From IMG/VR virus record IMGVR_UViG_2799113139_000004: a stretch of DNA of 64,000 nucleotides; one strand, written 5' to 3'. Numbering within the stretch: position 1 is the first letter of the stretch; each line of letters starts with the position of its first letter. The stretch comes from a virus. Lineage: Duplodnaviria > Heunggongvirae > Uroviricota > Caudoviricetes. Below are positions 338 through 62,132 of the stretch, piece by piece. A program made the translations under genes and the position numbers. Under the pieces are notes generated by a model that saw only the letters and a list, made by a program, of their open reading frames with translations, did no database searches and had not been told where the DNA came from.

Positions 338-832
338 TCATTTAACCGCTTTCGCCCTGGTTGTCCGCGTCGTCGTCTTCGCGGTCACTCGTCGCGTCGT
401 CGTCTTCGTCACCGGTTCCGGTTTTGTCTTGGAGCCCACGACTTTTGGGGCAACGTCATCGTCCTCCGTGTGCGAGCTGAATCTGACCAGTTCGCGCAGG
501 ATGGATAGGGCGGCGCTCAGTTGGTTGTCGTCGAGCTGATTGATGCCCGGTGGCAGCATCGCTTCGAGACGTGACTCGTTTTCGTTGATCGACATACCGA
601 GTGACCGACCGATGGCGAGAAGGACGATAGACGTCTTCACGTTGAGCGTCTTGCTGATGGCCTCGATCGTTTCCGGCTCGGGGAACACCTTGATCTCCCG
701 GCCGCTGGCGAACTGCCACCAACGCTGAGCCGAGATGGCGCCACCGCACTCAACCTCCAGCTCGTTGTAGGAGCGCGTGCCCTTCAGTGACGAAACAAGA
801 TCCTGTAAAGCCATGCCCTCGGATGATGCCAT
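338..832 (-). CDS. HTH (XRE-like) DNA-binding protein; candidate immunity repressor
   Basis: 164-aa ORF with an N-terminal helix-turn-helix segment (LQDLVSSLKGTRSYNELEVECGGAIS) and a basic low-complexity C-terminal tail. It is divergent from a Cro-like HTH gene across a 214-bp region rich in CTAGTA half-sites. Confidence 0.6.
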   Translation of the reverse strand: MASSEGMALQDLVSSLKGTRSYNELEVECGGAISAQRWWQFASGREIKVFPEPETIEAISKTLNVKTSIVLLAIGRSLGMSINENESRLEAMLPPGINQLDDNQLSAALSILRELVRFSSHTEDDDVAPKVVGSKTKPEPVTKTTTRRVTAKTTTRTTRAKAVK

Positions 833-1046
833 GTGAAACCCCTTCTACTCTCTCGGTCGTCGGTAGCTAGTAGTTAGCACCGTCTCATGGAGGAGATTCT
901 ACTGGTTTATGCGCTAGTGACTAGTGGTTGCTGAAGCCTATAACACCACAGCTCAACATGTGGGCTTTGGTTAGTCCGCGCGTTTGAAGTGCTAGTAACT
1001 TCGCTGGCGCGCCTAATCCAGTGGTTGACAGTCATAGTGCTAGTAA
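833..1046. promoter_or_regulatory. Divergent repressor/cro switch region with multiple CTAGTA/TCTACT operator half-sites
   Basis: 214-bp intergenic region between oppositely oriented HTH genes. Repeated half-sites are present (ttctactctc, ctagtagtta, attctactgg, ctagtgactagtgg, gctagtaact, gctagtaatt). Confidence 0.5.
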
Positions 1047-1400
1047 TTGATGATCAACGCATCCCGTTCAATCATCAGTCACCTCGTCTTCGAGGGGCGA
1101 AGGAGCGCAACCGTGGGCCGCAACGTCACATCAGTACAGGTCAAAGACCTGGGGCTGTTGCGGCACCTCGTAGGACCGGAGCCGGGCAAAGTGATGTCTG
1201 CGACGACGCTTGCACGTCGAATCGGCAGGCACCGTTCGTTTGTCGGGCATCTACTCAGTGGCGACCCTGATCGCTGCCGCACGTTCTCGGTTGAAGTGGC
1301 ACAAGCTATTTCGGTGGCGCTCGGCGTCAAGATGTCGCTACTTTTTCAGCCCGCGATATCAACCAGTAGACCTATAAATGTCTACCATGAGGCCGGCTGA
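1047..1400 (+). CDS. Cro-like HTH DNA-binding protein
   Basis: 117-aa ORF with an HTH segment (MSATTLARRIGRHRSFVGHLLSG), divergent from the repressor. The true start is uncertain. Confidence 0.5.
   Translation: MMINASRSIISHLVFEGRRSATVGRNVTSVQVKDLGLLRHLVGPEPGKVMSATTLARRIGRHRSFVGHLLSGDPDRCRTFSVEVAQAISVALGVKMSLLFQPAISTSRPINVYHEAG
1354..1378 (+). promoter_or_regulatory. First copy of the 25-bp element CGATATCAACCAGTAGACCTATAAA
   Basis: Lies within the 3' end of the Cro-like ORF, immediately upstream of the excisionase-like/methyltransferase operon. Confidence 0.45.
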
Positions 1401-4510: not shown

Positions 4511-4926
4511 TCACACGCATCAAGCAGATCATCGTCAACCTGATTCAGCCATCGCCCGGCATGGAGGCGCGCATCGAGGTCGATACCTGGCTGATCGGTG
4601 AGAGCTGCTTCGTCATCGAACCCAGCGCCGACGACGACCAGGTGACCATCCGTGACCGGACGAAAGACTGGCCGCTGATCAGTGGAAACTACTGGCTCGC
4701 AACGAGTCTCGGGCGGGTTATCGCAATCGGCATCCGGTTGCTCGATAGCGATCAGTGGTCTATCTCAGTCGGCGCGGAGTCGGGCGGACACGACGGTCCA
4801 CCGCCTGACGCATGGGACATCAAGTTTCGCGCCATGCCGTATCGGGGCATGCACGACCCGCTGATCGTCGTGCAGCTCGAAGAGGGCGAGTACATCGCCA
4901 GCATCGTGGAGGAGGTCGACCAATGA
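4507..4926 (+). CDS. Hypothetical protein
   Basis: ATGA overlap with the upstream stop; coding-like composition. Confidence 0.5.
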   Translation: MITRIKQIIVNLIQPSPGMEARIEVDTWLIGESCFVIEPSADDDQVTIRDRTKDWPLISGNYWLATSLGRVIAIGIRLLDSDQWSISVGAESGGHDGPPPDAWDIKFRAMPYRGMHDPLIVVQLEEGEYIASIVEEVDQ

Positions 4927-5654
4927 CACTCGCACTCGTTCAAGACGTCGAGGTCGATGTCAACGACGCGCTGATCAACGCCAAAACGCCGACAGAAACA
5001 CGGAAATCCCGGAAAGCGGTCTACTGGCGCAAGAGACGCGCGGAGCTGTCAGCGACGGCGTTGGACCGCCTAGACGATGCCGGAATCGTGCTCCCGTTGT
5101 TCGGTGGAATGATGACCATCCCCGAGATCTGCGACTACTTCGGCATCAGCCGGTCTGCCCTGACCAACATCGCGCGCGCCAACTACACGGAACTGATTGA
5201 CGTCGGGTACATGCCCGGCAGCGTCACGCGGCCCACGCGGTATAGCGAGATGGCGATCATTCACGTCGCGATGATCTTGCGGTCCAGTACATCTGATCAG
5301 GCCGCGGAGATTCAGAAGGCGCTCGGCATGTTCAAGCCGCCGCGCACCGCGAAGAAGCGACACATCAGCGCCGCGCACATCAAGGTCTGTGGTCGCATTC
5401 TCGATGAGGCTTACGCGCTCATCAGCGACATTCGCGAACAGGACCCCGAGGAGGTCTGGCGCGATCTGGACCGGCGAAGTCGTCACGATCTTCAGATGAC
5501 GGCCGTCGCTCTGGCGTCGCTGATCCCGGCTGATCAGGGTGGCTTGCGCGCCTGGCTGTCGCGTCTGGGCATGAACCTTCGATCGTCAGCGCTGAACAAG
5601 GCCGCGGTCGGTCTGGCGAGCCTGGTGCCGAGCCGGCAGGAGATCGCCGAATGA
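4923..5654 (+). CDS. Hypothetical protein
   Basis: ATGA start/stop overlap; 243-aa ORF with coding-like composition. Confidence 0.5.
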   Translation: MTLALVQDVEVDVNDALINAKTPTETRKSRKAVYWRKRRAELSATALDRLDDAGIVLPLFGGMMTIPEICDYFGISRSALTNIARANYTELIDVGYMPGSVTRPTRYSEMAIIHVAMILRSSTSDQAAEIQKALGMFKPPRTAKKRHISAAHIKVCGRILDEAYALISDIREQDPEEVWRDLDRRSRHDLQMTAVALASLIPADQGGLRAWLSRLGMNLRSSALNKAAVGLASLVPSRQEIAE

Positions 5655-12943: not shown

Positions 12944-13034
12944 TACACATCACCCAGTAGTTCATAGATGTAGTAGAGTGCTCTACTAGCCGAGCTTCGG
13001 CACATCACAACAATCCCAGCGGAAGAGGGACGAA
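12944..13034. promoter_or_regulatory. Regulatory region with palindromic operator TAGTAGAGTGCTCTACTA and GGTGAT..ATCACC inverted repeat
   Basis: The palindrome at 12971-12988 matches the consensus seen at 58577-58596 and 61535-61554. An A/C-rich leader plus SD lies upstream of 13035. Confidence 0.5.
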
Positions 13035-13352
13035 ATGAACAGACAGAACGAATGCACGGATCACGTCCACGTCTCTATCAAGGAGATCAGCGACGAGGTT
13101 CTTCTTGAGATCTGGCTCGACGGATTCGCGAGCGGCGCGATGTCGTTGATGGCGAATGCGATCGACGGTGATCCTGACGGTCCGACCGAAGAGCGTCAGC
13201 TTGAGCTAGCTCATGCGATGGTCGCGTCGCTCATGAACGACCCTGTGGCGGTAGCGACCACGCGCAAAAACATCTTCGCGCGCATGACTGTCGGCAATCT
13301 CGCTGCTGGCGTGACCAAGATCGACTCAGGCAAGAAGGTCAAGCAGTCATGA
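13035..13352 (+). CDS. Hypothetical protein
   Basis: Strong SD (ggaagagggacgaa ATG); 105 aa. Confidence 0.5.
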   Translation: MNRQNECTDHVHVSIKEISDEVLLEIWLDGFASGAMSLMANAIDGDPDGPTEERQLELAHAMVASLMNDPVAVATTRKNIFARMTVGNLAAGVTKIDSGKKVKQS

Positions 13353-14865: not shown

Positions 14866-15352
14866 GCGATGGCTACGAAAGCTGCTGACCGGCGAGCCGC
14901 ATCAGGTGATCACCAATAACGAAGGCTCACCGTATCTTCGACGCTGGTACGTCATCCCGCGCAATCGTTGGGTGAACATCTATGTTCACCAGTTCTTACG
15001 CAGCGACGACGACCGCGCGATGCACGATCACCCATGGCCATTCTTCTCCTGGGTGCTCAAGGGACGTTACTTCGAAGAGATTGATCTCGGCGTAATCGTC
15101 CGTGAGAGATGGTCATTCGCCTACCGGCCAGCGGTGCACCGGCATATTGTCCGGCTCGATGTGACGATGGTCCAAGATCGTTACGAGGATGATTCATGGG
15201 CGAGAAGCGCCAGCCCGCAGGATATTCCGGTCTGGACCCTGATAGTCACCGGGCGACGAATGCGCGAGTGGGGCTTCTGGTGTCCAGACCCCAAGACGCT
15301 GGTGGAGCGCTTCGTGCCGTGGCGGGAGTTCGGCGCGAGGGGGTGCGAATGA
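14846..15352 (+). CDS. Hypothetical protein, possible cupin-like metal-binding fold
   Basis: MHDHPWPFFSWVLKGRYFEE and HRH motifs loosely resemble the cupin/cysteine-dioxygenase HDH ... E motif. Weak. Confidence 0.45.
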   Translation: MSPPNNERWLRKLLTGEPHQVITNNEGSPYLRRWYVIPRNRWVNIYVHQFLRSDDDRAMHDHPWPFFSWVLKGRYFEEIDLGVIVRERWSFAYRPAVHRHIVRLDVTMVQDRYEDDSWARSASPQDIPVWTLIVTGRRMREWGFWCPDPKTLVERFVPWREFGARGCE

Positions 15353-38135: not shown

Positions 38136-41100
38136 AGGCGTTGAACTAGCGGTCGGTTACGTCTCTCTCGTCGCCGAAACGAAGGACCTCCAGAAGGGTG
38201 TCACGCGGGCGCTGAACGCTGCCGGTGACGACGCCGACTCTGTAGGCCGCAAGATCGGCGCGAAGATGGGCCAGGGTGCCTCTTCGTCATTCGGCGACTT
38301 CATGAAGAAGGGCCTCGCGACCGCGGGTATCGCCGGAGGCCTCGCGTCGATCACCGCTGGCTTCACCGCTGCCGTTCAGTCGGGACTCGAATTCGAACGC
38401 AACCTCAACACGATGAAGGGCGTCTCAAGCGCCACCGCCGAAGAGATGGCCCAGATCAGCGCCAAGGCGCGCGACCTGGGTCGTGATGTCACCTTGTCAG
38501 GCACCTCGGCGCAGAGCGCCGCAGCGGCGATGACAGAGTTGGTCAAGGGTGGTCTGAGCGTTCAGCAGGCGATGGAAGCCGCCCGCGGCACCGTTCAGCT
38601 CGCCGCGGCCGCCCAGGTGGACGCCGCGACGGCCGCGACCATTCAGGCGCGCACGCTTCAGACCTTCCATCTGGACGCCACGCGTGCAGCCGACGCTGCC
38701 GATGTGCTGGCCAACACCGCGAACGCATCTACCGGCGAGATCGGTGACTTCGCCTACGGCATGCAGGCCGGTGGCGCGGTCGCGGCCCAGTTCGGCCTCA
38801 CGATGGAAGACACCGCGGCCGCGCTCGGTCTGTTCGCCAACAACGGCATCGTCGGGTCTGACGCGGGCACCATGCTCAAGTCCGCACTGCTGGCACTGAC
38901 CGACTCCGGTAAGCCCGCTGTGAAGGCGATGGAGATGCTGAACCTGCATCTCTACGACGCCAAGGGCAACTTCGTCGGCGTTCGTGAGCTGATCCAGCAG
39001 GTCGCCCAAGCCGCCAAGGATATGACCCCCGAAGAGTTTCAGGGGAACGCCGCGACGCTATTCGGCTCTGACGCTATGCGATTCGCCGGTGTGGCCGCGA
39101 AAGAAGGCGCCGAGGGCTTCGACAAGATGCGGACAGCCGTCACCCGGCAGGGTGGCGCTGCGCAGTTGGCCGCGGCCCAGAACGAGGGGCTACCGGGTGT
39201 CTTCGAGCGACTGACGAACACGCTCGACGACGCGAAGCTAGCGCTCGCTGATGTTCTGAACGGACCGCTCCAGAGTCTCGGCAACTGGGCTAACCAGAAC
39301 CTCGGAGACCTGCTGGACGCGCTCAAGGGTGAATCCAGCAGCGGCGTCTTCTCTGATATCGCCAAGAGCATCAAGGATGCCTGGCCGGATATCCAGAAGT
39401 TCGGCAAGGCGCTGGCGAGCGTGCTCGGCACCATGGGTAGCGCCGCGTGGTCCGCATTCGCGTTGTCTCTCAAGGCGGTTGGTGCGGTAGCTAGCGTTCT
39501 AGCTCCAGTCCTCGGCGCTGTCGCTGACGCTCTCGACGGCCAAGAGGGTGCCGTCATGGGTGTCGCCGTCGCCTGGGCAACGTGGAAGTTCTTGCCTGGC
39601 ATGCTTGATCGGCTGCCGGGGCCACTCGGAAACATCCGGCAGACGCTTCCCGGTGTCATCTCCGGTATGCGCGGATTCCGCGAAGAGATGCAGCTTCAGC
39701 GCAGTCTCGCGCAGATGCAGGGAATCCACCTGAACACCGTCAACAGTGCCATGGCAACGATGGCCGCACGCTACCCGGCGCTTGCGCAGATGGGTGCGGC
39801 ATACCGTTCCGGCTTCGACGGCGCTGACCGATTCCAGCGCACTGCTGGTATCGCGGCCGGCGCGACCAAGGGACTGTCGATCGCCGCTGGCGGTCTGGTC
39901 AGCGCGCTCGGTGGCCCGTGGGGACTCGCGCTCGGTGGCGCATCGATCGCACTCGGCCTACTCGCACAGAAGCATCAAGAGGCCGCCGACAAGGCGGCCC
40001 AGCAGCGCCAGGAGGAAGAAGCGCTTCGGGCCACGCTGGACAAGTCCACGGGCAAGATCACCGAGCAGACGCGCGAAGAGATCGCCAAGAAGTTCCAGGA
40101 CATCGGCACCGATCAGCGTGCGAAGAGCTACGGCCTCGATCCGGCCCAGCTCATGGACGCCGCGACGGGCCTCGGCGATCCCAACGCGTACAACAACATT
40201 CGTAAGAGGGCTGCTGACATCATCGGCGAGCAGACCGCCGACAAGGGCTTCCGTACGCGAAGCGCCATGATCGACCTCAAGAACGCTGGTATCTCAAATG
40301 AAGAGTTGGTCGCCGCACTGCTGCGCGAAGGCAACGCATGGGATGAGGTCAACAAGAAGCTCACTGACTACCAGAACAATCAGAAGAGCCTCGACAAGAA
40401 CTATCAGAAGGGTGTCGATGGTCTTCAGGGATTCATCGACATCATGCCCGATGCGCGCGAATCCTTCATCACGCTAACGCAAAACGTCAACGACCAGCGC
40501 AACTCCATCGGTGATCTGTCGCAGAAGAATCGCGACCTTCAGCAGATGCTCAGAGGTACGTGGGAAGCGACCGACGAAGGCATCGCGCGATTCAAGGATC
40601 TAGGCGCGTCCATCGTCGCGGTACCCAGCGACAAGGAGATCGTCGTAAACGCGCTGACCGACAAGGCTCAGCAGACGTTGAAAGACCTTGGCTACCAAGT
40701 GCAGAAGATGCCCGATGGGTCGTTCAAGGTCACCGCTGACACCGAAGAGGCGCAGCGTCGCATCGCTGAACTCGTCAAGAAGGTCGAGCAGCCACACTCG
40801 ATGCCGATTGACGCAGCGCCAAAGACGTTGCTGAACAACGTCGCTCAGGCGACACCAGAACCCAATAGCGTTGCCACACCGGCACCTGCCGGGCCACAGA
40901 ACCCGCTTGATCTTCTGATTCCCAAGCGTGCTGATGGCGGCGCGGTCTATGGAGAAGGTTCCGCGAAGTCCGACTCCGTTCTCATGTGGGGTTCCAACGG
41001 CGAGCACATGCTGACCGCCAAGGACGTTCAGAACATGGGCGGCCATCGCGGTGTCATGGCGCTACGTCAGGCCGCTGCTCAAGGAATGCTGCCGGGATTC

Positions 41101-56766: not shown

Positions 56767-56940
56767 TTGCTCAGTTGAATGTGTGAACTTCGACGTCTAC
56801 GAAGTCGAGATAGGCGACCCATTCGCCATCGACTATCGCGACTAGATTGCCAACCGCATTCGTCCCTAGCTGAGCGTTCGGCCATCGGCTCAGCGTCTCT
56901 GTAATCAGTTGTTGCAACTCAATCCCGGAAATGAGCCGCA

Positions 56941-57159
56941 TCAGTCGGCGCTCGGTGTGTAGTTGTCCATCCAGCCATCCTGGACACCCTCGGCGTACGC
57001 GTGGGCCGCCTCTGGCCAGCCGTCATGCCTCTTGGGTCCAGGATCAGCGGCCCAGCGATGGGGGATAGACACCGCACCAGGGAACTTGTCTCGATACAGC
57101 GCCCTCTTCTTGCCGACCTCGTACCCCTCGACGTACGGCTCACTTTGCTTGTTAGTCAT
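56941..57159 (-). CDS. Hypothetical protein
   Basis: 72 aa; start overlaps the stop of the upstream ADP-ribosylglycohydrolase gene on the minus strand. Confidence 0.4.
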   Translation of the reverse strand: MTNKQSEPYVEGYEVGKKRALYRDKFPGAVSIPHRWAADPGPKRHDGWPEAAHAYAEGVQDGWMDNYTPSAD

Positions 57160-58181
57160 CAGAACTCATACCCTTCTGCTTCCAGGATCTCTTGCTGGTA
57201 GCGCGGTTCGAGCCGCGCGAACCACTCGGCAGGCCACGGGTCATCGTGAATAGCACCGAGAATGGAGCCAGCGACAGCAGCGATCGAATCGCTGTCACCG
57301 TTGGTCACGGTCGCGCGACGCAGCGCCGCAATGGGGTCATCAGGAAACAGGTCAGCGCACAGCAGCGCGGTCGAGAGTGCGTGTTGCGCACGCCAACCTT
57401 CGCCCGCCAGTTCGCATGGGTCAAAGCTCCATGGGTCCAGTTCGGACCGTCGAATGGTGTTGAGCGCGATGTCAGCATCGACCAGAGCGTCAGCGATCGC
57501 GAGTAGCCCGCGCGTGATGAACCGACGTACACCGTCCTCGTAAGCGGGACCGTAGTAGTCGGCGTTCTCACCGATCCATTCGTCCAGTCCGGTCAGAAGC
57601 GAATCGTCGGCATCGTTGATCGCGTCGAGTGTCATCCCAAGCGCGAACGCGACTGCCTCACCCGGTGCTGGCCTCATGCGAATGAGGGCAGCAGCGACAA
57701 GAGATGCAGCGACACCCGATGCCTTGCCGTGAGTCGAAATCGCCTGCCACGCAGCGATTCCCTGCCAGCTCTTCGGATCACTGGTGAACGCAGCAGGACT
57801 GACGCGCATAACGGTTCCGCAACCGTCCGAACCTTCAACTGAAGCGTCGAGCCAGTCGATGCCAGCCTTCATCGCACCGATGGCGCGCATGCACGTGTTG
57901 CCAGGTGCGCGATTGTTGTCCGGGTCACTGAACCATTCGATCCACTCAGCGATGACGTCTTCGCGAATCTCGCTGTCGGTCTTGTTGCCTGCATCGTTGA
58001 GCGCACGCGCGAGCGCGAGTGTCATCTGAGTGTCGTCGCTGATGACCAGCTTCTCGGGAAGATTCGGCCCGAGGGGGCTACCCTTCGTCAGCTCGGCATA
58101 GCTTCTGAACTCGTTCTTGTACCCCCACGCGTCGCCATAGGCGACACCGCGGAGCACGTTCGACCATTTGCGCTTGTCCAT
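57159..58181 (-). CDS. ADP-ribosylglycohydrolase (ARH/DraG family)
   Basis: GVAYGDAWGY and ISDDTQMTLA match ADP-ribosylglycohydrolase family signatures; 340 aa. Confidence 0.75.
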   Translation of the reverse strand: MDKRKWSNVLRGVAYGDAWGYKNEFRSYAELTKGSPLGPNLPEKLVISDDTQMTLALARALNDAGNKTDSEIREDVIAEWIEWFSDPDNNRAPGNTCMRAIGAMKAGIDWLDASVEGSDGCGTVMRVSPAAFTSDPKSWQGIAAWQAISTHGKASGVAASLVAAALIRMRPAPGEAVAFALGMTLDAINDADDSLLTGLDEWIGENADYYGPAYEDGVRRFITRGLLAIADALVDADIALNTIRRSELDPWSFDPCELAGEGWRAQHALSTALLCADLFPDDPIAALRRATVTNGDSDSIAAVAGSILGAIHDDPWPAEWFARLEPRYQQEILEAEGYEF

Positions 58182-58196
58182 GAGTGTCCTTTCGAT

Positions 58197-58331
58197 TCAG
58201 TCGGAGCAACGCTCTTCGTCGCTGTGCCAGTAGTCGCCACCGGTCACGTAGTACTCACCGTTGATGTAGATCTTTCGATGCACGTACTCACAGACGTGAC
58301 CGTGTGAGCAGCGACGCTCGTTGCCGCTCAT
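58197..58331 (-). CDS. Small Cys/His-rich protein (44 aa; not in ORF track)
   Basis: Reverse-strand ATG at 58331, TGA at 58197. Product MSGNERRCSHGHVCEYVHRKIYINGEYYVTGGDYWHSDEERCSD. Coupled by ATGA overlap to the gene upstream on the minus strand. Confidence 0.4.
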   Translation of the reverse strand: MSGNERRCSHGHVCEYVHRKIYINGEYYVTGGDYWHSDEERCSD

Positions 58332-58531
58332 GCTTCGATCCTCGAAAGACCGACCGCGCGGCAGGTTGCGAGGTCGAGCACACTCCCGCGGAAGAGCTGC
58401 ATGATCATGCAGTCGATCATTTTCTGGTTGTAGTTCTTCAGGAACTTGGTCGGCATCTGCGCCTGACGTCCGTCGGTCGCAGTGACGACGGTCATCTCCA
58501 GTCCGATGGTGTCAAGATCGCTGTTACGCAT
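58328..58531 (-). CDS. Hypothetical protein
   Basis: 67 aa; first gene of the minus-strand cassette downstream of the operator region. Confidence 0.45.
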   Translation of the reverse strand: MRNSDLDTIGLEMTVVTATDGRQAQMPTKFLKNYNQKMIDCMIMQLFRGSVLDLATCRAVGLSRIEA

Positions 58532-58545
58532 GGCATTCCCGCTTT

Positions 58546-58648
58546 CACTAGTAGAACTGTCTACTACTCTAGCAGACTAGTAGACATGTCTACTAGGTGG
58601 TTGCGAGAATGACCTGCAGGTTCGTTGCTCCTTAGTAGACACGCCTAC
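58546..58648. promoter_or_regulatory. Operator cluster: TAGTAGAACTGTCTACTA, perfect palindrome CTAGTAGACATGTCTACTAG, and TAGTAGACACGCCTAC
   Basis: Three copies of the TAGTAGAC..GTCTACTA motif in a divergent intergenic region (58532-58690). Confidence 0.6.
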
Positions 58649-58690
58649 CGATCGCGGAACTAGACTGAGAGGCGAGATCTGGAGGACACT

Positions 58691-59065
58691 ATGACGATGG
58701 CGGCATCCCCACCGACGAACGCAACAGCCTGGTTGCGTGACAATGGCATCGAACTATCGCGCCCAATGCAGGCGCGCTTCACTGACGCATTCAACGACCT
58801 TGTAGAGCGCTACACCGAGCAGTCTGAGCGGCCAATGCGCGACGCGTCGATCATGGCCGCAGCGCGCTATCTGGCCGGTGAACTGACGCTCGAAGAGGCC
58901 GGCAGTGCGCTGGAGAAGGTCAGAGCGAAGGCCGAGGTCGCGATGGCAGTCACCCGCATCGTGACGCTGCTGTCGCTCGACGATGATTCCGTGAGTGAGT
59001 ACGGCGCGCAGCGTGCGGCCCGCGTGGATCGTATGACGATACGCAAATGGCAGGGCAAGCGATGA
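58691..59065 (+). CDS. Hypothetical protein with C-terminal Xis-like HTH
   Basis: ARVDRMTIRKWQGK resembles the HTH of the 21100 and 1378 genes; divergent from the minus-strand cassette. Confidence 0.45.
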   Translation: MTMAASPPTNATAWLRDNGIELSRPMQARFTDAFNDLVERYTEQSERPMRDASIMAAARYLAGELTLEEAGSALEKVRAKAEVAMAVTRIVTLLSLDDDSVSEYGAQRAARVDRMTIRKWQGKR

Positions 59066-59337
59066 CCGAGATCGGTATCACCGACATCTGCAAGTGTGGT
59101 CACGATCTGGTCAGTCACGATCTGGGCGACCCACACCATCGAGCCGGCGCATGCGCTGGCCATGAACTCGATGGCCCGTGCGAGTGCAGCCATTACCGCG
59201 AGGTCTGCCGGTGCGCCGAGTGTGACGCCGACGAACTGGACACGGATACGGTCGTGGTTGTTCCGTTCTCGCTCATCACGCTCGCGCTCGGTACCTTCGT
59301 CGGCATCTTCATCGGTGCGTTGCTCAGAAGGCGATAA
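59062..59337 (+). CDS. Cys/His-rich membrane-anchored protein
   Basis: ATGA overlap; CKCGHDLVSHD ... CECSHYREVCRCAEC, then a C-terminal TM (VVVVPFSLITLALGTFVGIFIGALL). Confidence 0.45.
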   Translation: MTEIGITDICKCGHDLVSHDLGDPHHRAGACAGHELDGPCECSHYREVCRCAECDADELDTDTVVVVPFSLITLALGTFVGIFIGALLRRR

Positions 59338-59343
59338 GAAAAC

Positions 59344-59496
59344 ATGAGCGTGGGCGGGCAACCGGCTTGGCCCTGCGCGACCTGCGGAGGTCTAATGACC
59401 GTCAAGGGCAACTACGCGTACAACAGCAAGGATGAACCTGTTCACAACACCGTTTGGTGTTCTGACCTAGTTTCCGAGCTTTATGCGCCACAGTGA
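59344..59496 (+). CDS. Small zinc-ribbon protein (50 aa; not in ORF track)
   Basis: Product MSVGGQPAWPCATCGGLMTVKGNYAYNSKDEPVHNTVWCSDLVSELYAPQ; followed by a terminator. Confidence 0.4.
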   Translation: MSVGGQPAWPCATCGGLMTVKGNYAYNSKDEPVHNTVWCSDLVSELYAPQ

Positions 59497-59512
59497 CGAA
59501 ATACGTTGATAC

Positions 59513-59555
59513 AGAAGCACCCCCGAGAATTTATCTCGGGGGTGCTTCTTCGTTT
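59513..59555. terminator. Bidirectional rho-independent terminator
   Basis: GAAGCACCCCCGAGA-loop-TCTCGGGGGTGCTTC followed by TTCGTTT; sits between convergent genes. Confidence 0.7.
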
Positions 59556-59563
59556 GGTGACTG

Positions 59564-60997
59564 TTACACGTCCGCGTGTAGACGGTAGTACGAGTCATCA
59601 TCATTGAGATCCTTGACCTTGGTGCTGTTCAGGGTCTCTCGGATGACGTCCTGGATCTGATCGTCGATCGAGAAGCCGGTCTCACCTTCGTCAGCTTCGT
59701 ACTGAGCACGAAGCTGGTTGTGTAGTGAGATCGCAGCGCCGACCAGATCGGAGGTGTCGAGCTTGTAGTCAACACCGCCACCCAGACGCCCGATGGCGTA
59801 CGTCTTAGCCCGCTCCAGAGCCTCGCGCACGAACGCCGGGTAGAAGCCGACCGCTTCACCGTTCACGTTGATCGTCATGGCCTCGTAAACCTTGTCGTAG
59901 TCAACGTCATCGGCCAGGCGGTTCGGAGCGACCACGGCGCGCACCAGGCGCTCAGTGCCGTTGCGATCCAGCGCGGCGACCTCCACGACAGCATCGATGC
60001 GACCAGGGCGAAGCATGCCCTTGTGGATTCGCTCGAAGTGGTTGGTCGTCATCAGAAGCGCCAGCTCGGAACCCTTCGACGTCACGCCGTCGAACGACTC
60101 CAGCAGCTTGGACACCTCATCCGAGTCGCCGGTAGACGCCTGGTTGTCCACGTCCTCGATGAACACCACCGCGGGCTGGTACAGCTTGGCCGTCTTCAGG
60201 ACCTCGTTGATGTTGTCACCAGGACGCGACGCGATGAACGTCCAGCCGCTCGCAACCGCTTCGAGCGCGGTCAACTGACCAGCGGAGGTCTTTCCGGTGC
60301 CGTACGGGCCTTCCAGCAGCAGCGCGCGCTTGATACGCACACCTTCGCTCTTGAGCACTTCACGGTGACGGATGACCGACCACAGGGTGCCCTCCAAGGT
60401 GCTCATCACCTCGTCGGAGAAGACGATCTCCTCGGGTTTGACGCTCGACAGGTTCAGGAACTCTGGTTCCTCGGTGCCGACGATCGCCTGACCGCGATAG
60501 ATCGAGTTCGTCTTCAGCTCTTGACCGATGGCGTCCAGGAACTCAACCGCCTTGGGAGAGTTCTTCTTTGCTGTGATCACGCTGATGTACGCGATCATCC
60601 CGTGCTCGCGATCCCGTGTGCCAGACACCATGATGACGCCACCATCGCCGAGCGACGGGACATACACCCGACCCCAGGGGACCTCCAGTGTTTCGGTGGC
60701 AGAGATCTGCACCGTGCGCGTCTCCGGTGGCTCCGGCGGTGAGAAGAAGCCGCCCGGAGTTGGCATGCCGATGGTGATACCGAACATGCGCTTCATAACG
60801 CGCTGCGCTGCCACCGCCCCATCGAACGGACGGAACTGGTAGGTCCGCTTCTTCTCCATCATCGTCTCGGCCTCATCCTGCATTCGCTGCAAGATGTCCT
60901 TGGCGCGACCGTAAGTGATGTTGCGCGGCAACACAATATCGGTCTTATCGTGGAAAGTGACCTCATCACCGGTGATGATCTCGTCGTCCTTCATGGT
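59564..60997 (-). CDS. AAA+ ATPase (classic AAA clade) with N-terminal domain of unknown function
   Basis: Walker A (GPYGTGKT), Walker B (VVFIEDVD), SRH/arginine finger (TTNHFERIHKGMLRPGRID). Start at the internal Met with SD (gagaaagagagaacc ATG). The ORF track extends to 61153. Confidence 0.7.
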   Translation of the reverse strand, partial: TMKDDEIITGDEVTFHDKTDIVLPRNITYGRAKDILQRMQDEAETMMEKKRTYQFRPFDGAVAAQRVMKRMFGITIGMPTPGGFFSPPEPPETRTVQISATETLEVPWGRVYVPSLGDGGVIMVSGTRDREHGMIAYISVITAKKNSPKAVEFLDAIGQELKTNSIYRGQAIVGTEEPEFLNLSSVKPEEIVFSDEVMSTLEGTLWSVIRHREVLKSEGVRIKRALLLEGPYGTGKTSAGQLTALEAVASGWTFIASRPGDNINEVLKTAKLYQPAVVFIEDVDNQASTGDSDEVSKLLESFDGVTSKGSELALLMTTNHFERIHKGMLRPGRIDAVVEVAALDRNGTERLVRAVVAPNRLADDVDYDKVYEAMTINVNGEAVGFYPAFVREALERAKTYAIGRLGGGVDYKLDTSDLVGAAISLHNQLRAQYEADEGETGFSIDDQIQDVIRETLNSTKVKDLNDDDSYYRLHADV

Positions 60998-61237
60998 TCT
61001 CTCTTTCTCTATTCCGCTGGATATCTGTTGTTGGTCGGCACCCCCACCCGCCATGGTTTCCAGGTGGGGGTGCCGTGCCGAACTGACCTGGGAGATCGTC
61101 AGATCAGTCGGCGAATGTTGATGTCGTGAGCCAGACAGGAGTCCCGCGCCCAATGATCACTTTGCGCGCTAGCTCGCGTCCTTACCGTGATCGCGACCAA
61201 CGTAATCACATTCGCGACAAGCGAATTCGAGGGGACC

Positions 61238-61269
61238 AGGTGGTCGAGATTGCTCCCGACCACCTGGCG
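61238..61269. promoter_or_regulatory. Perfect inverted repeat CCAGGTGGTCG-N10-CGACCACCTGG
   Basis: 11-bp arms; lies just past the stop of the minus-strand 61274-61465 gene. Confidence 0.35.
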
Positions 61270-61273
61270 TCTG

Positions 61274-61465
61274 CTAGTTGGTCAGCAGATCTTCGCCTTG
61301 CTCGATTTGCTCAAGCTCTGTCTCCAGTCGTTGCACCTCGGCAACGAGAGCACGAAGCTCGCGTTTGCGATTTGCAATCTTCTGGGTGACGACTCTGCGC
61401 CGCTGGCGCAGAGTAGCAAGAGCCTCGTCGCGGCTCATCCCCTCGGGAAGTTGAATCATGTTCAC
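61274..61465 (-). CDS. Small coiled-coil protein
   Basis: 63 aa; start GGAGG SD-like (aggaggtgaac ATG on the minus strand). Confidence 0.45.
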   Translation of the reverse strand: MNMIQLPEGMSRDEALATLRQRRRVVTQKIANRKRELRALVAEVQRLETELEQIEQGEDLLTN

Positions 61466-61534
61466 CTCCTTCTGTTTCCGCTAGTCGTTGTTGTGATTGA
61501 CACCTTGTCGGTGTCGTCTTCGACAGTAGCACAG

Positions 61535-61652
61535 CTAGTAGACAAGTCTACTGGTTTGACGAGTATTTCTATGAACTAGTGATAAATGGTACGTCTACTG
61601 CTGGACCTATGCGGCAGGTTTCAGCAGATAGTAGACTGATCTACCATCTACC
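61535..61652. promoter_or_regulatory. Operator cluster: CTAGTAGACAAGTCTACTGG, GTCTACTG half-site, and TAGTAGACTGATCTAC
   Basis: Same motif family as at 58546-58648 and 12971-12988; divergent intergenic region 61466-61671. Confidence 0.55.
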
Positions 61653-61671
61653 CCGAGAGAAGGAGGACGAC

Positions 61672-61863
61672 ATGTCCGAGATCATTCGTTTGCGTGACGA
61701 TGACGGTGACCAGCTCGTCGTTGAGCACGAAGGCAAGGCCCAGCACTTCACGTTTCGAGTGGTGGACCCGGACGGTAATCACATGGCCGCCTACGTGCCC
61801 TATGCCGACGCGGCCGCGCTGGTGACGACGATCAGCGAGACCTTGACGGAGGCGGTGGGGTGA
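61672..61863 (+). CDS. Hypothetical protein
   Basis: ATG with a strong SD (gagaaggaggacgac ATG); 63 aa. Confidence 0.5.
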   Translation: MSEIIRLRDDDGDQLVVEHEGKAQHFTFRVVDPDGNHMAAYVPYADAAALVTTISETLTEAVG

Positions 61864-62132
61864 GTGCCGCCAGACTTGCTGCCAAACTCGCCGAAGAGCT
61901 GGGCTACAACTACCAAGTCATCATCACCCCGCAGGGCTGGATCGACATTCGGATGGATTGCAAGATCACGTTGTCAGATGAACTCGACTTCGCTCGTATC
62001 ATCCCCGAAGACAATCAGTATCGTCTTGTGCATCTGATCCACAACGAGATCAGCAGAGGTGAAGCAACATTCAGCGGATCTATGATCGCCTATCTACCAG
62101 GCGTGGTGCGCGCGATGATTAGCGCGAGTTGA
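61860..62132 (+). CDS. Hypothetical protein
   Basis: GTG overlap; 90 aa. Confidence 0.4.
   Translation: MSAARLAAKLAEELGYNYQVIITPQGWIDIRMDCKITLSDELDFARIIPEDNQYRLVHLIHNEISRGEATFSGSMIAYLPGVVRAMISAS

Follow-up and report, generated by a model that had tools for sequence, protein, structure and literature searches.

A family of conserved palindromes in a Mycobacterium abscessus MabR prophage as putative operators of accessory genes, and gp91 as their candidate regulator

The window, that is, the whole 64,000-nt stretch analysed, was identified as Mycobacterium phage prophiFSQJ01-1 (BK061312.1; 100% identity), a cluster MabR prophage from M. abscessus strain 712, here named FSQJ; record coordinates equal window coordinates plus 1847. 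The early side contains, in order, int, gp2, the immunity repressor gp3, Cro and the early genes, and is followed by the virion and lysis genes and by an attR-proximal accessory block (Table 1). This block comprises a clamp-like protein, a leftward ADP-ribosyl-glycohydrolase operon, the helix-turn-helix (HTH) protein gp91, an AAA-ATPase, small genes and a WXG-100 polymorphic-toxin cassette. Palindromes, operators and promoters are all unmentioned in the MabR cluster paper (PMC9434293).

Table 1. Palindromic sites, predicted promoter and genes discussed in the text (window coordinates).
Feature	Position	Strand	Description
Immunity repressor gp3	338-832	-	
Switch repeat GCTAGTAGTT	866		
Switch repeat CTAGTGACTAGTGG	913-926		
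Switch repeat AGTGCTAGTAA	988 and 1036		
Cro	1113-1400		
Putative operator A	12970-12989	.	GTAGTAGAGTGCTCTACTAG; 25.8 bits; 91-bp gap between primase/polymerase gene 24 and gene 25
Gene 25	13035-13352	+	105 aa; phrog_15181; 3' of operator A
In-gene site	29785-29804	.	CTGGTAGAGATGTCTACCAA; 28.7 bits; codon ~240 of the minor-capsid/ADP-ribosyltransferase gene (29068-32658)
Leftward operon from locus B	56771-58531	-	Genes 90, 89, 88, 87 and 86
Gene 88	57159-58181	-	ADP-ribosyl glycohydrolase; PF03747, E=4e-45
Putative operator B1	58548-58567	.	CTAGTAGAACTGTCTACTAC; 24.1 bits; 17 bp 5' of the ATG of leftward gene 90
Putative operator B2	58577-58596	.	CTAGTAGACATGTCTACTAG; perfect palindrome; 27.6 bits
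Predicted SigA-type gp91 promoter	58581-58610	+	TAGACA, 18 nt, GAGAAT, extended TG; consensus scan only
Putative operator B3	58632-58651	.	TTAGTAGACACGCCTACCGA; 19.9 bits (strong left arm 15.0, weak right arm 4.9)
gp91, proposed cognate regulator	58691-59065	+	124 aa; C-terminal HTH (…VDRMTIRKWQGKR)
Genes 92-94	59062-59588	+	3' of gp91; as annotated in the record
61-aa ORF	61274-61459	-	Basic region and coiled coil; strong Shine-Dalgarno sequence
Putative operator C1	61535-61554	.	CTAGTAGACAAGTCTACTGG; 24.5 bits; 5' of the leftward 61-aa gene
Putative operator C2	61628-61647	.	ATAGTAGACTGATCTACCAT; 27.8 bits; 25 nt before ATG 61672
Rightward locus C genes	61672-62132	+	63-aa protein (ATG 61672), then gene 98

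The six palindromes described in the initial annotation were all present, in the 20-mer registers of Table 1. With up to three mismatches, CTAGTAGACNNGTCTACTAG had four matches in the window versus 0.00 in 100 dinucleotide shuffles, and TAGTAGAC had seven versus 0.32 expected. A dyad weight matrix was built from 25 sites (50 half-sites) of five MabR prophages, namely FSQJ and the full sequences of McProf, prophiFVLQ01-1 (FVLQ), prophiFSAT01-1 (FSAT) and prophiFSIL01-1 (FSIL). At a cut-off of at least 14 bits it found six to eight sites per genome across all five, and the seven in FSQJ, compared with 0.05 per shuffled genome, are far above the chance frequency that the initial annotation had raised as an objection to its own proposal. 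The consensus was nT(A/G)GTAGA(C/G)-N2-(G/C)TCTAC(T/C)An, a pair of half-sites T(A/G)GTAGA(C/G) of 7-8 bp with their centres 10 bp apart, and the GTAGA core was unchanged in 49-50 of the 50 half-sites.

Six of the seven FSQJ sites are intergenic and stand 17-50 bp from start codons. The seventh was overlooked in the initial annotation, which had placed the motif in intergenic regions only; it lies within a capsid gene, in the variable linker after the VG15 domain, where it forms a perfectly conserved 27-bp DNA island in all five MabR genomes.

A SigA consensus scan predicted one promoter at the palindromes, that of gp91 (TAGACA-18-GAGAAT), in which the TAGACA of B2 would double as the -35 element and B3 would lie 3' of the transcription start. 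The other -10 assignments were read by eye: the palindromes hold TANNNT-type hexamers plausibly spaced from a start codon or Shine-Dalgarno sequence; C2 has TAGACT, site A (a site present in FSQJ only) and the C2 sites in the relatives have TAGAGT, and the third site at locus B in McProf has TAGAAT. At C1, a -10-like TACTGT comes next on the minus strand. In FVLQ gp91 (40148-40167) and FSAT gp89 (40926-40945) the palindrome ends on the A of the ATG, and the same arrangement occurs in McProf (14938-14957) at an in-frame ATG 14 codons 5' of the annotated gp56 start. This geometry suggests that the three genes could be expressed from leaderless mRNAs with the -10 element inside the putative operator.

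The initial annotation had assigned the palindromes to divergent intergenic regions flanking, among others, the AAA cassette. For the C1/C2 pair this placement holds only after re-annotation, and the AAA-ATPase gene does not directly adjoin the sites. The GenBank record puts C1 and C2 inside plus-strand genes 96 and 97. Gene 96 ("membrane protein", window 61250-61579) overlaps the conserved minus-strand 61-aa ORF, whose homologues are annotated on the minus strand in McProf, FSAT, FSIL and FVLQ, and by this comparison its annotation looks wrong. Gene 97 probably starts at ATG 61672, as in its homologues, rather than at the annotated 61579. With the minus-strand ORF and this start, 61460-61671 becomes a genuine divergent intergenic region. 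Tiny ORFs annotated over the same region in the relatives (McProf gp93, FSAT gp92, FSIL gp92 and FVLQ gp94) are probably spurious too. A GC-rich inverted repeat at 61038-61077 (GGCACCCCCACC…GGTGGGGGTGCC), between the 61-aa gene and the AAA-ATPase gene, may be a terminator parting the AAA-ATPase from the transcript under operator control; similar hairpins are found 3' of the AAA-ATPase gene in FVLQ and FSAT.

The five MabR prophages all carry the palindromes at orthologous loci, with diverged DNA in between. Locus B has two or three tandem sites, 24-32 bp apart, beside the HTH operon in every genome, and these are kept despite differing flanks: gene 90 of FSQJ is unrelated to McProf gene 87, and in three of the genomes a 265-aa gene is inserted before the HTH gene. 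Locus C has two sites with a 72-73 bp spacer in all five. Between FSQJ and the others, this spacer is conserved at random level (identity 0.62-0.66 versus a shuffle mean of 0.585), whereas the sites themselves are 78-89% identical. Extra sites accompany lineage-specific small genes, with two 5' of McProf gp56 and one each at the start codons of FVLQ gp91 and FSAT gp89. A putative role of the palindromes as operators is thus well supported, because the sites are conserved at orthologous loci and overlap -35-like or -10-like promoter elements.

The half-sites have also shifted in concert. In FSQJ, 10 of 14 half-sites have A at position 2, compared with 7 of 54 in the other four genomes (Fisher p=4e-5), and the two arms of a site vary independently, as at locus C2, where the left arm is TAG and the right arm TGG in all five. 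Both features fit co-evolution with a phage-encoded protein. The highly conserved product of the 61-aa ORF, in which a basic stretch (RQRRRVVTQKIANRKRELR) is followed by a heptad-like coiled coil in a bZIP-like layout, was considered as the binder and rejected, its basic region RRRVVTQKIANRKRELRAL being identical in the five MabR phages despite the half-site shift.

These patterns also bear on two readings that involve no dedicated regulator. The palindromes could simply be a symmetrical form of core promoter driving bidirectional transcription, since TAGACA resembles TTGACA, the hexamers TAGAGT, TAGACT and TAGAAT fit a TANNNT -10 element, and most sites are at divergent gene starts. We regard this as improbable: it offers no account of why positions 1-3, which fall outside the hexamers, are conserved, why the dyad keeps strictly to 10 bp, why copies recur in tandem at 24-32 bp, why the A/G shift spans a whole lineage, or why the in-gene site is conserved. 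A function in RNA, as terminators or as processing or stability hairpins, is more improbable still. A stem of 7 bp with a 4-nt loop could form (-3.6 to -11.1 kcal/mol), and a TAG-to-TGG change in both arms would keep the pairing. However, the folds are weak, four of the seven being at most 1 to 2.5 sd below shuffled sequence, no U-tract was found 3' of the palindromes, and many sites lie 5' of predicted transcription starts. The GTAGA core is invariant rather than co-varying, and the mixed arms of C2 would place an A-C mismatch in the stem in all five genomes.

The main switch (833-1112) is conserved across the five MabR phages and contains a repeat of its own, (A/G)CTAGTA(G/A), which is asymmetric, mostly in one orientation and present in 4-5 copies. 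A predicted P_cro (TTGACA at 1025, 18 nt, GATGAT) is overlapped by a CTAGTAAT repeat and has one copy in its spacer, and a leftward promoter (TAGTCA-16-TAGAAT, 923-896) was also predicted. The (A/G)CTAGTA(G/A) repeats are presumably the real gp3/Cro operators. The enrichment of CTAGTA reported in the initial annotation was reproduced, with 11 copies in the window versus 3.7 expected, three of them at 833-1112. The palindromic dyad, in contrast, was absent from the switch in all five genomes, where the best scores were -4.8 to -9.1 bits as against 20-30 for real sites.

The initial annotation had joined the palindromes and the main switch into a single regulon under the 338-832 repressor. In this reading gp3 would bind both, in one network like the operators and "stoperators" of L5. 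Several observations favour it: the FSQJ palindrome arms open with CTAGTA/TAGTAG, the core of the switch repeats; scored as a lone half-site, one switch repeat of McProf, FSAT and FSIL (CTAGTAGATT) reaches 12.7 bits; FSQJ gp3, too, differs from that of the other MabR phages; and in K2 phages such as Milly a gp3-like gene lies next to a gp91-like one. The switch repeats are nevertheless asymmetric, with no dyad in any switch, and they remain CTAGTAG in the four phages whose palindromes are of the TGGTAGA type, so the CTAGTA resemblance is peculiar to FSQJ, with its TAG-type palindromes. McProf gp56, whose promoter bears two palindromes, is transcribed in lysogens, at a low level (PMC8191103), despite high gp3 expression. 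Related palindromes were found, moreover, in the cluster K phages Boilgate and Anaya, in which neither gp3 (tblastn: none at E<=1, or a best match of 0.32) nor Cro has a homologue, and the authors of the cluster K papers argue likewise that the comparable elements of those phages are not bound by the immunity repressor (PMC3203893, PMC11373665). We therefore consider binding by gp3 unlikely. The part of the regulon proposal that stands is one operator family over several accessory and lysogeny-associated cassettes, a small regulon supported by the sites described above, and the parts that lack support are membership of the main repressor/cro switch and control by the 338-832 repressor.

Within MabR alone gp3, Cro and gp91 each differ between FSQJ and the other phages, so this comparison cannot by itself separate them, and a wider set of phages was examined. 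The phylogenetic profile was obtained by protein-level tblastn because tblastx was too insensitive for short proteins. gp91, which the initial annotation had listed only as an alternative protein to test, emerged as a better candidate than gp3. It matched the profile of phrog_2311 over residues 28-124 (E=3.9e-19), and its AF2 monomer was predicted with confidence (pLDDT 94) as an all-helical protein with a C-terminal HTH. With no Pfam match and no solved structure of close fold, it is not an HTH protein of the Cro/CI type. The family had 123 cluster representatives at E<=1e-3, and homologues were found in 91 phage records, mostly cluster K mycobacteriophages. Close homologues formed only four clusters at 90% identity, all of them MabR, and a profile search of genome contigs with the gp91 alignment gave zero further close relatives. 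By comparison, gp3 homologues were restricted to a few K2 phages, DS6A and some Gordonia and Arthrobacter phages. Scans of IMG/VR for exact palindromes recovered McProf, FVLQ, FSAT and one FSIL-like variant, together with single matches, mostly in low-GC contigs; none of these non-MabR single matches encodes a homologue of gp91, gp3 or Cro.

Exact matches to GTWGA-N4-TCWAC numbered six in FSQJ, five in McProf, seven in Milly and four in Boilgate, versus 0.05-0.25 in shuffles. Boilgate (K8) carries TGTAGAY-NN-RTCTACA (four exact matches versus 0.05 expected), whose core, GTAGAC-NN-GTCTAC, is that of MabR. These sites are all intergenic and come in tandem pairs spaced by 23-24 bp, and one site with two mismatches lies 5' of gp34, its gp91 homologue. 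In the Boilgate record the palindromes are at 34933, 34956, 53620, 53643, 54463, 54487, 55835 and 31741. In Milly (K2), TGTTGA-N4-TCAACA occurs in pairs spaced by 26-31 bp, and the gp91 homologue of this phage, gp36, has the first pair directly 5' of it. A pair in this position was likewise found in Anaya (K1), Pixie (K3), Kratio (K5), Ellie, Aminay (K7) and Nergal. Boilgate and Anaya, the two phages without gp3 and Cro homologues, both encode a gp91 homologue. Co-occurrence of the palindromes with the gp91 family is accompanied by co-variation: a recognition helix VDRMT(I/V)R goes with the GTAGA half-site in MabR and Boilgate, and is also present in Aminay, whose site is a GTTGA/GTAGC hybrid, while (V/I)(D/N)RLTVRK goes with GTTGA in six K phages.

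In Milly, gp35 (a gp3 homologue) and gp36 are adjacent and co-oriented (28944-29814) and lie away from the repressor/cro switch of that phage (genes 46 and 47). From this location the gp3-like protein of K2 phages is probably not an immunity repressor.

Another phage protein could share this distribution. The early-operon HTH protein gp12 (4923-5654) has homologues in MabR, Milly, Anaya and Boilgate (E=1e-14 to 4e-20), so that its phylogenetic profile matches as well, and palindromes overlapping a -35 element could serve a class II activator. Under this alternative gp12 or another phage-encoded protein would act as a lytic-phase activator or repressor, and gp91 would have a different role. The HTH helices of gp12 are, however, unrelated in MabR and Boilgate despite their common GTAGAC-NN-GTCTAC core, the gp12 genes are not beside the palindromes, and several sites cover the -10 element and start site or abut the start codon, positions unsuited to activation; overall, the geometry of the sites relative to the promoters fits repression better than activation. 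We judge binding by gp12 or another such protein to be unlikely, if slightly less so than binding by gp3. A transcription factor of the Mycobacteroides host, which would tie prophage genes to a host regulon, is highly improbable. Host regulators of the TetR type and the like typically use palindromes this long, although nothing direct points to one; the consensus differs among prophages of one host species, related motifs track phage lineages in M. smegmatis phages, and the exact perfect TGG palindrome TGGTAGACNNGTCTACCA was found, in a test of low sensitivity, in 0 Mycobacteriaceae among 185,579 species representatives. Five of the 44 exact genome matches to TGGTAGACNNGTCTACCA are in Chitinophaga species and may represent an unrelated regulator motif of that genus.

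The most likely binder of the palindromes would thus be gp91, and on balance we favour a model, with fair though not strong confidence, in which it is an autoregulating repressor of the promoters that bear them. The analysis shows the sites, their non-random occurrence and conservation, and the way they co-occur and co-vary with the gp91 family; binding and dimerisation, together with the promoter assignments and the sign of regulation, we infer. The palindromes would be operators embedded in SigA-type promoters of accessory genes, and two half-sites with centres 10 bp apart would suit a dimeric HTH protein. Binding should repress, because the half-sites coincide with -35-like (TAGACA) or -10-like (TAGAGT, TAGACT, TAGAAT) hexamers. 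Since the densest cluster of sites is on its own promoter, gp91 would autoregulate, with B2 on the -35 element and B3 3' of the start site, and from B1-B3 it would also hold down the divergent ADP-ribosyl-glycohydrolase operon. Genes 92-94 are probably co-transcribed with gp91. Through C1 and C2, gp91 could control the divergent small genes of locus C, and through site A a putative internal promoter ahead of gene 25. Such negative feedback would give low, buffered levels of the target genes in the lysogen, independently of the gp3/Cro switch. On this reading the initial annotation was right in proposing a regulon, but its choice of regulator and the link to the main switch were probably wrong.

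The cluster K palindromes point to a known element. Extended start-associated sequences (ESAS) are found in cluster K phages such as TM4, ZoeJ and Adephagia (PMC3203893; PMC11373665), and their inverted repeats are the paired GT[A/T]GA-N4-TC[A/T]AC palindromes of these phages. Pope et al. 2011 argued that proteins bind the ESAS, with a specificity that differs by subcluster, and that the elements are not operators of the immunity repressor (PMC3203893). In Adephagia they were described in 2024 as promoters plus inverted repeats, "plausibly" bound by a regulator that is "unlikely to be the immunity repressor" (PMC11373665), and a 2025 survey still lists their function as untested (PMC12699233). 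No ESAS regulator is named in these cluster K papers from 2011 to 2025 (PMC3203893, PMC11373665, PMC12699233). Boilgate was reported to be without ESAS (PMC12699233); the search criteria of that survey would miss its palindrome family.

The MabR sites are like ESAS in having several intergenic copies per genome just 5' of gene starts, inverted repeats with embedded -35/-10 elements (putative in MabR), a lineage-specific consensus, related half-sites GT[A/T]GA-N4-TC[A/T]AC, dyad pairs about 23-32 bp apart and a gp91-family HTH gene directly 3' of one copy. In some cluster K ESAS the last base of the repeat is also the first base of the start codon (PMC12699233), as it is at FVLQ gp91 and FSAT gp89. 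They differ in lacking the 13-bp SAS GGGATAGGAGCCC (0 matches in the window with up to two mismatches) and in being compact, sometimes single, 18-bp dyads with 8-bp arms and a fixed 2-bp spacer, so the resemblance is to the 16-bp sub-palindromes within the K2 and K8 elements and to the spacing of their pairs. The MabR sites are also at divergent promoters of an attR-proximal accessory region in an M. abscessus prophage, and the GTAGA core is shared only with K8 Boilgate and partly with K7 Aminay. From this comparison we see an even chance for a wider proposal, in which gp91/phrog_2311 (Milly gp36, Anaya gp37, Boilgate gp34 and, by position, Adephagia/ZoeJ gp36) would be the ESAS regulator, the MabR palindromes would be a compact SAS-less version of ESAS, and one helix residue would set the central base, with Met (DRMT) giving GTAGA and Leu (DRLT) giving GTTGA. 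The gp36 genes of Adephagia and ZoeJ are expressed in lysogens; we infer their homology to gp91 from position rather than from alignment.

Two better-known arrangements offer further comparisons. The lambdoid OR1-OR3 are dyad-symmetric operators of CI and Cro in the switch. The MabR loci are similar in having two or three dyads of 17-20 bp, one to three helical turns apart, between divergent promoters, with sites overlapping putative -35/-10 elements and a presumed autoregulating HTH protein as the neighbouring gene. They differ in that the palindromes are not the lysis/lysogeny switch, there being a separate gp3/Cro switch with a different repeat. In the cluster A phage L5, the immunity repressor gp71 itself binds more than 20 sites, which are 13 bp long, asymmetric and orientation-dependent. 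FSQJ would resemble L5 in having one phage-encoded regulator that acts at many dispersed sites, some inside transcription units; possible counterparts of the stoperators are site A and the site within the capsid gene at 29785. Its sites, in contrast, are seven in number, symmetric and apparently not bound by the immunity repressor.

If the wider proposal on gp91/phrog_2311 is correct, a second transcriptional circuit, independent of the immunity repressor, would set the levels of accessory genes expressed in lysogeny. The comparison also singles out the gp91 family as a specific candidate for the protein that binds ESAS in cluster K phages, among them TM4 and ZoeJ, which serve as tools in genetics and therapy. 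Clinical M. abscessus commonly carries MabR prophages, and in M. chelonae McProf increases whiB7 expression and intrinsic antibiotic resistance (PMC8191103, PMC9434293). The genes behind the putative operators form part of the attR-proximal accessory region, several genes of which are expressed in McProf lysogens. A dedicated regulator apart from the immunity repressor, probably controlling some of these accessory genes, would provide a handle to switch them on or off. As a minor observation, the conserved in-gene site lies in the virion ADP-ribosyltransferase gene and the main cluster of sites would serve the ADP-ribosyl glycohydrolase operon, a pairing of a transferase with a putatively regulated glycohydrolase that is worth attention.
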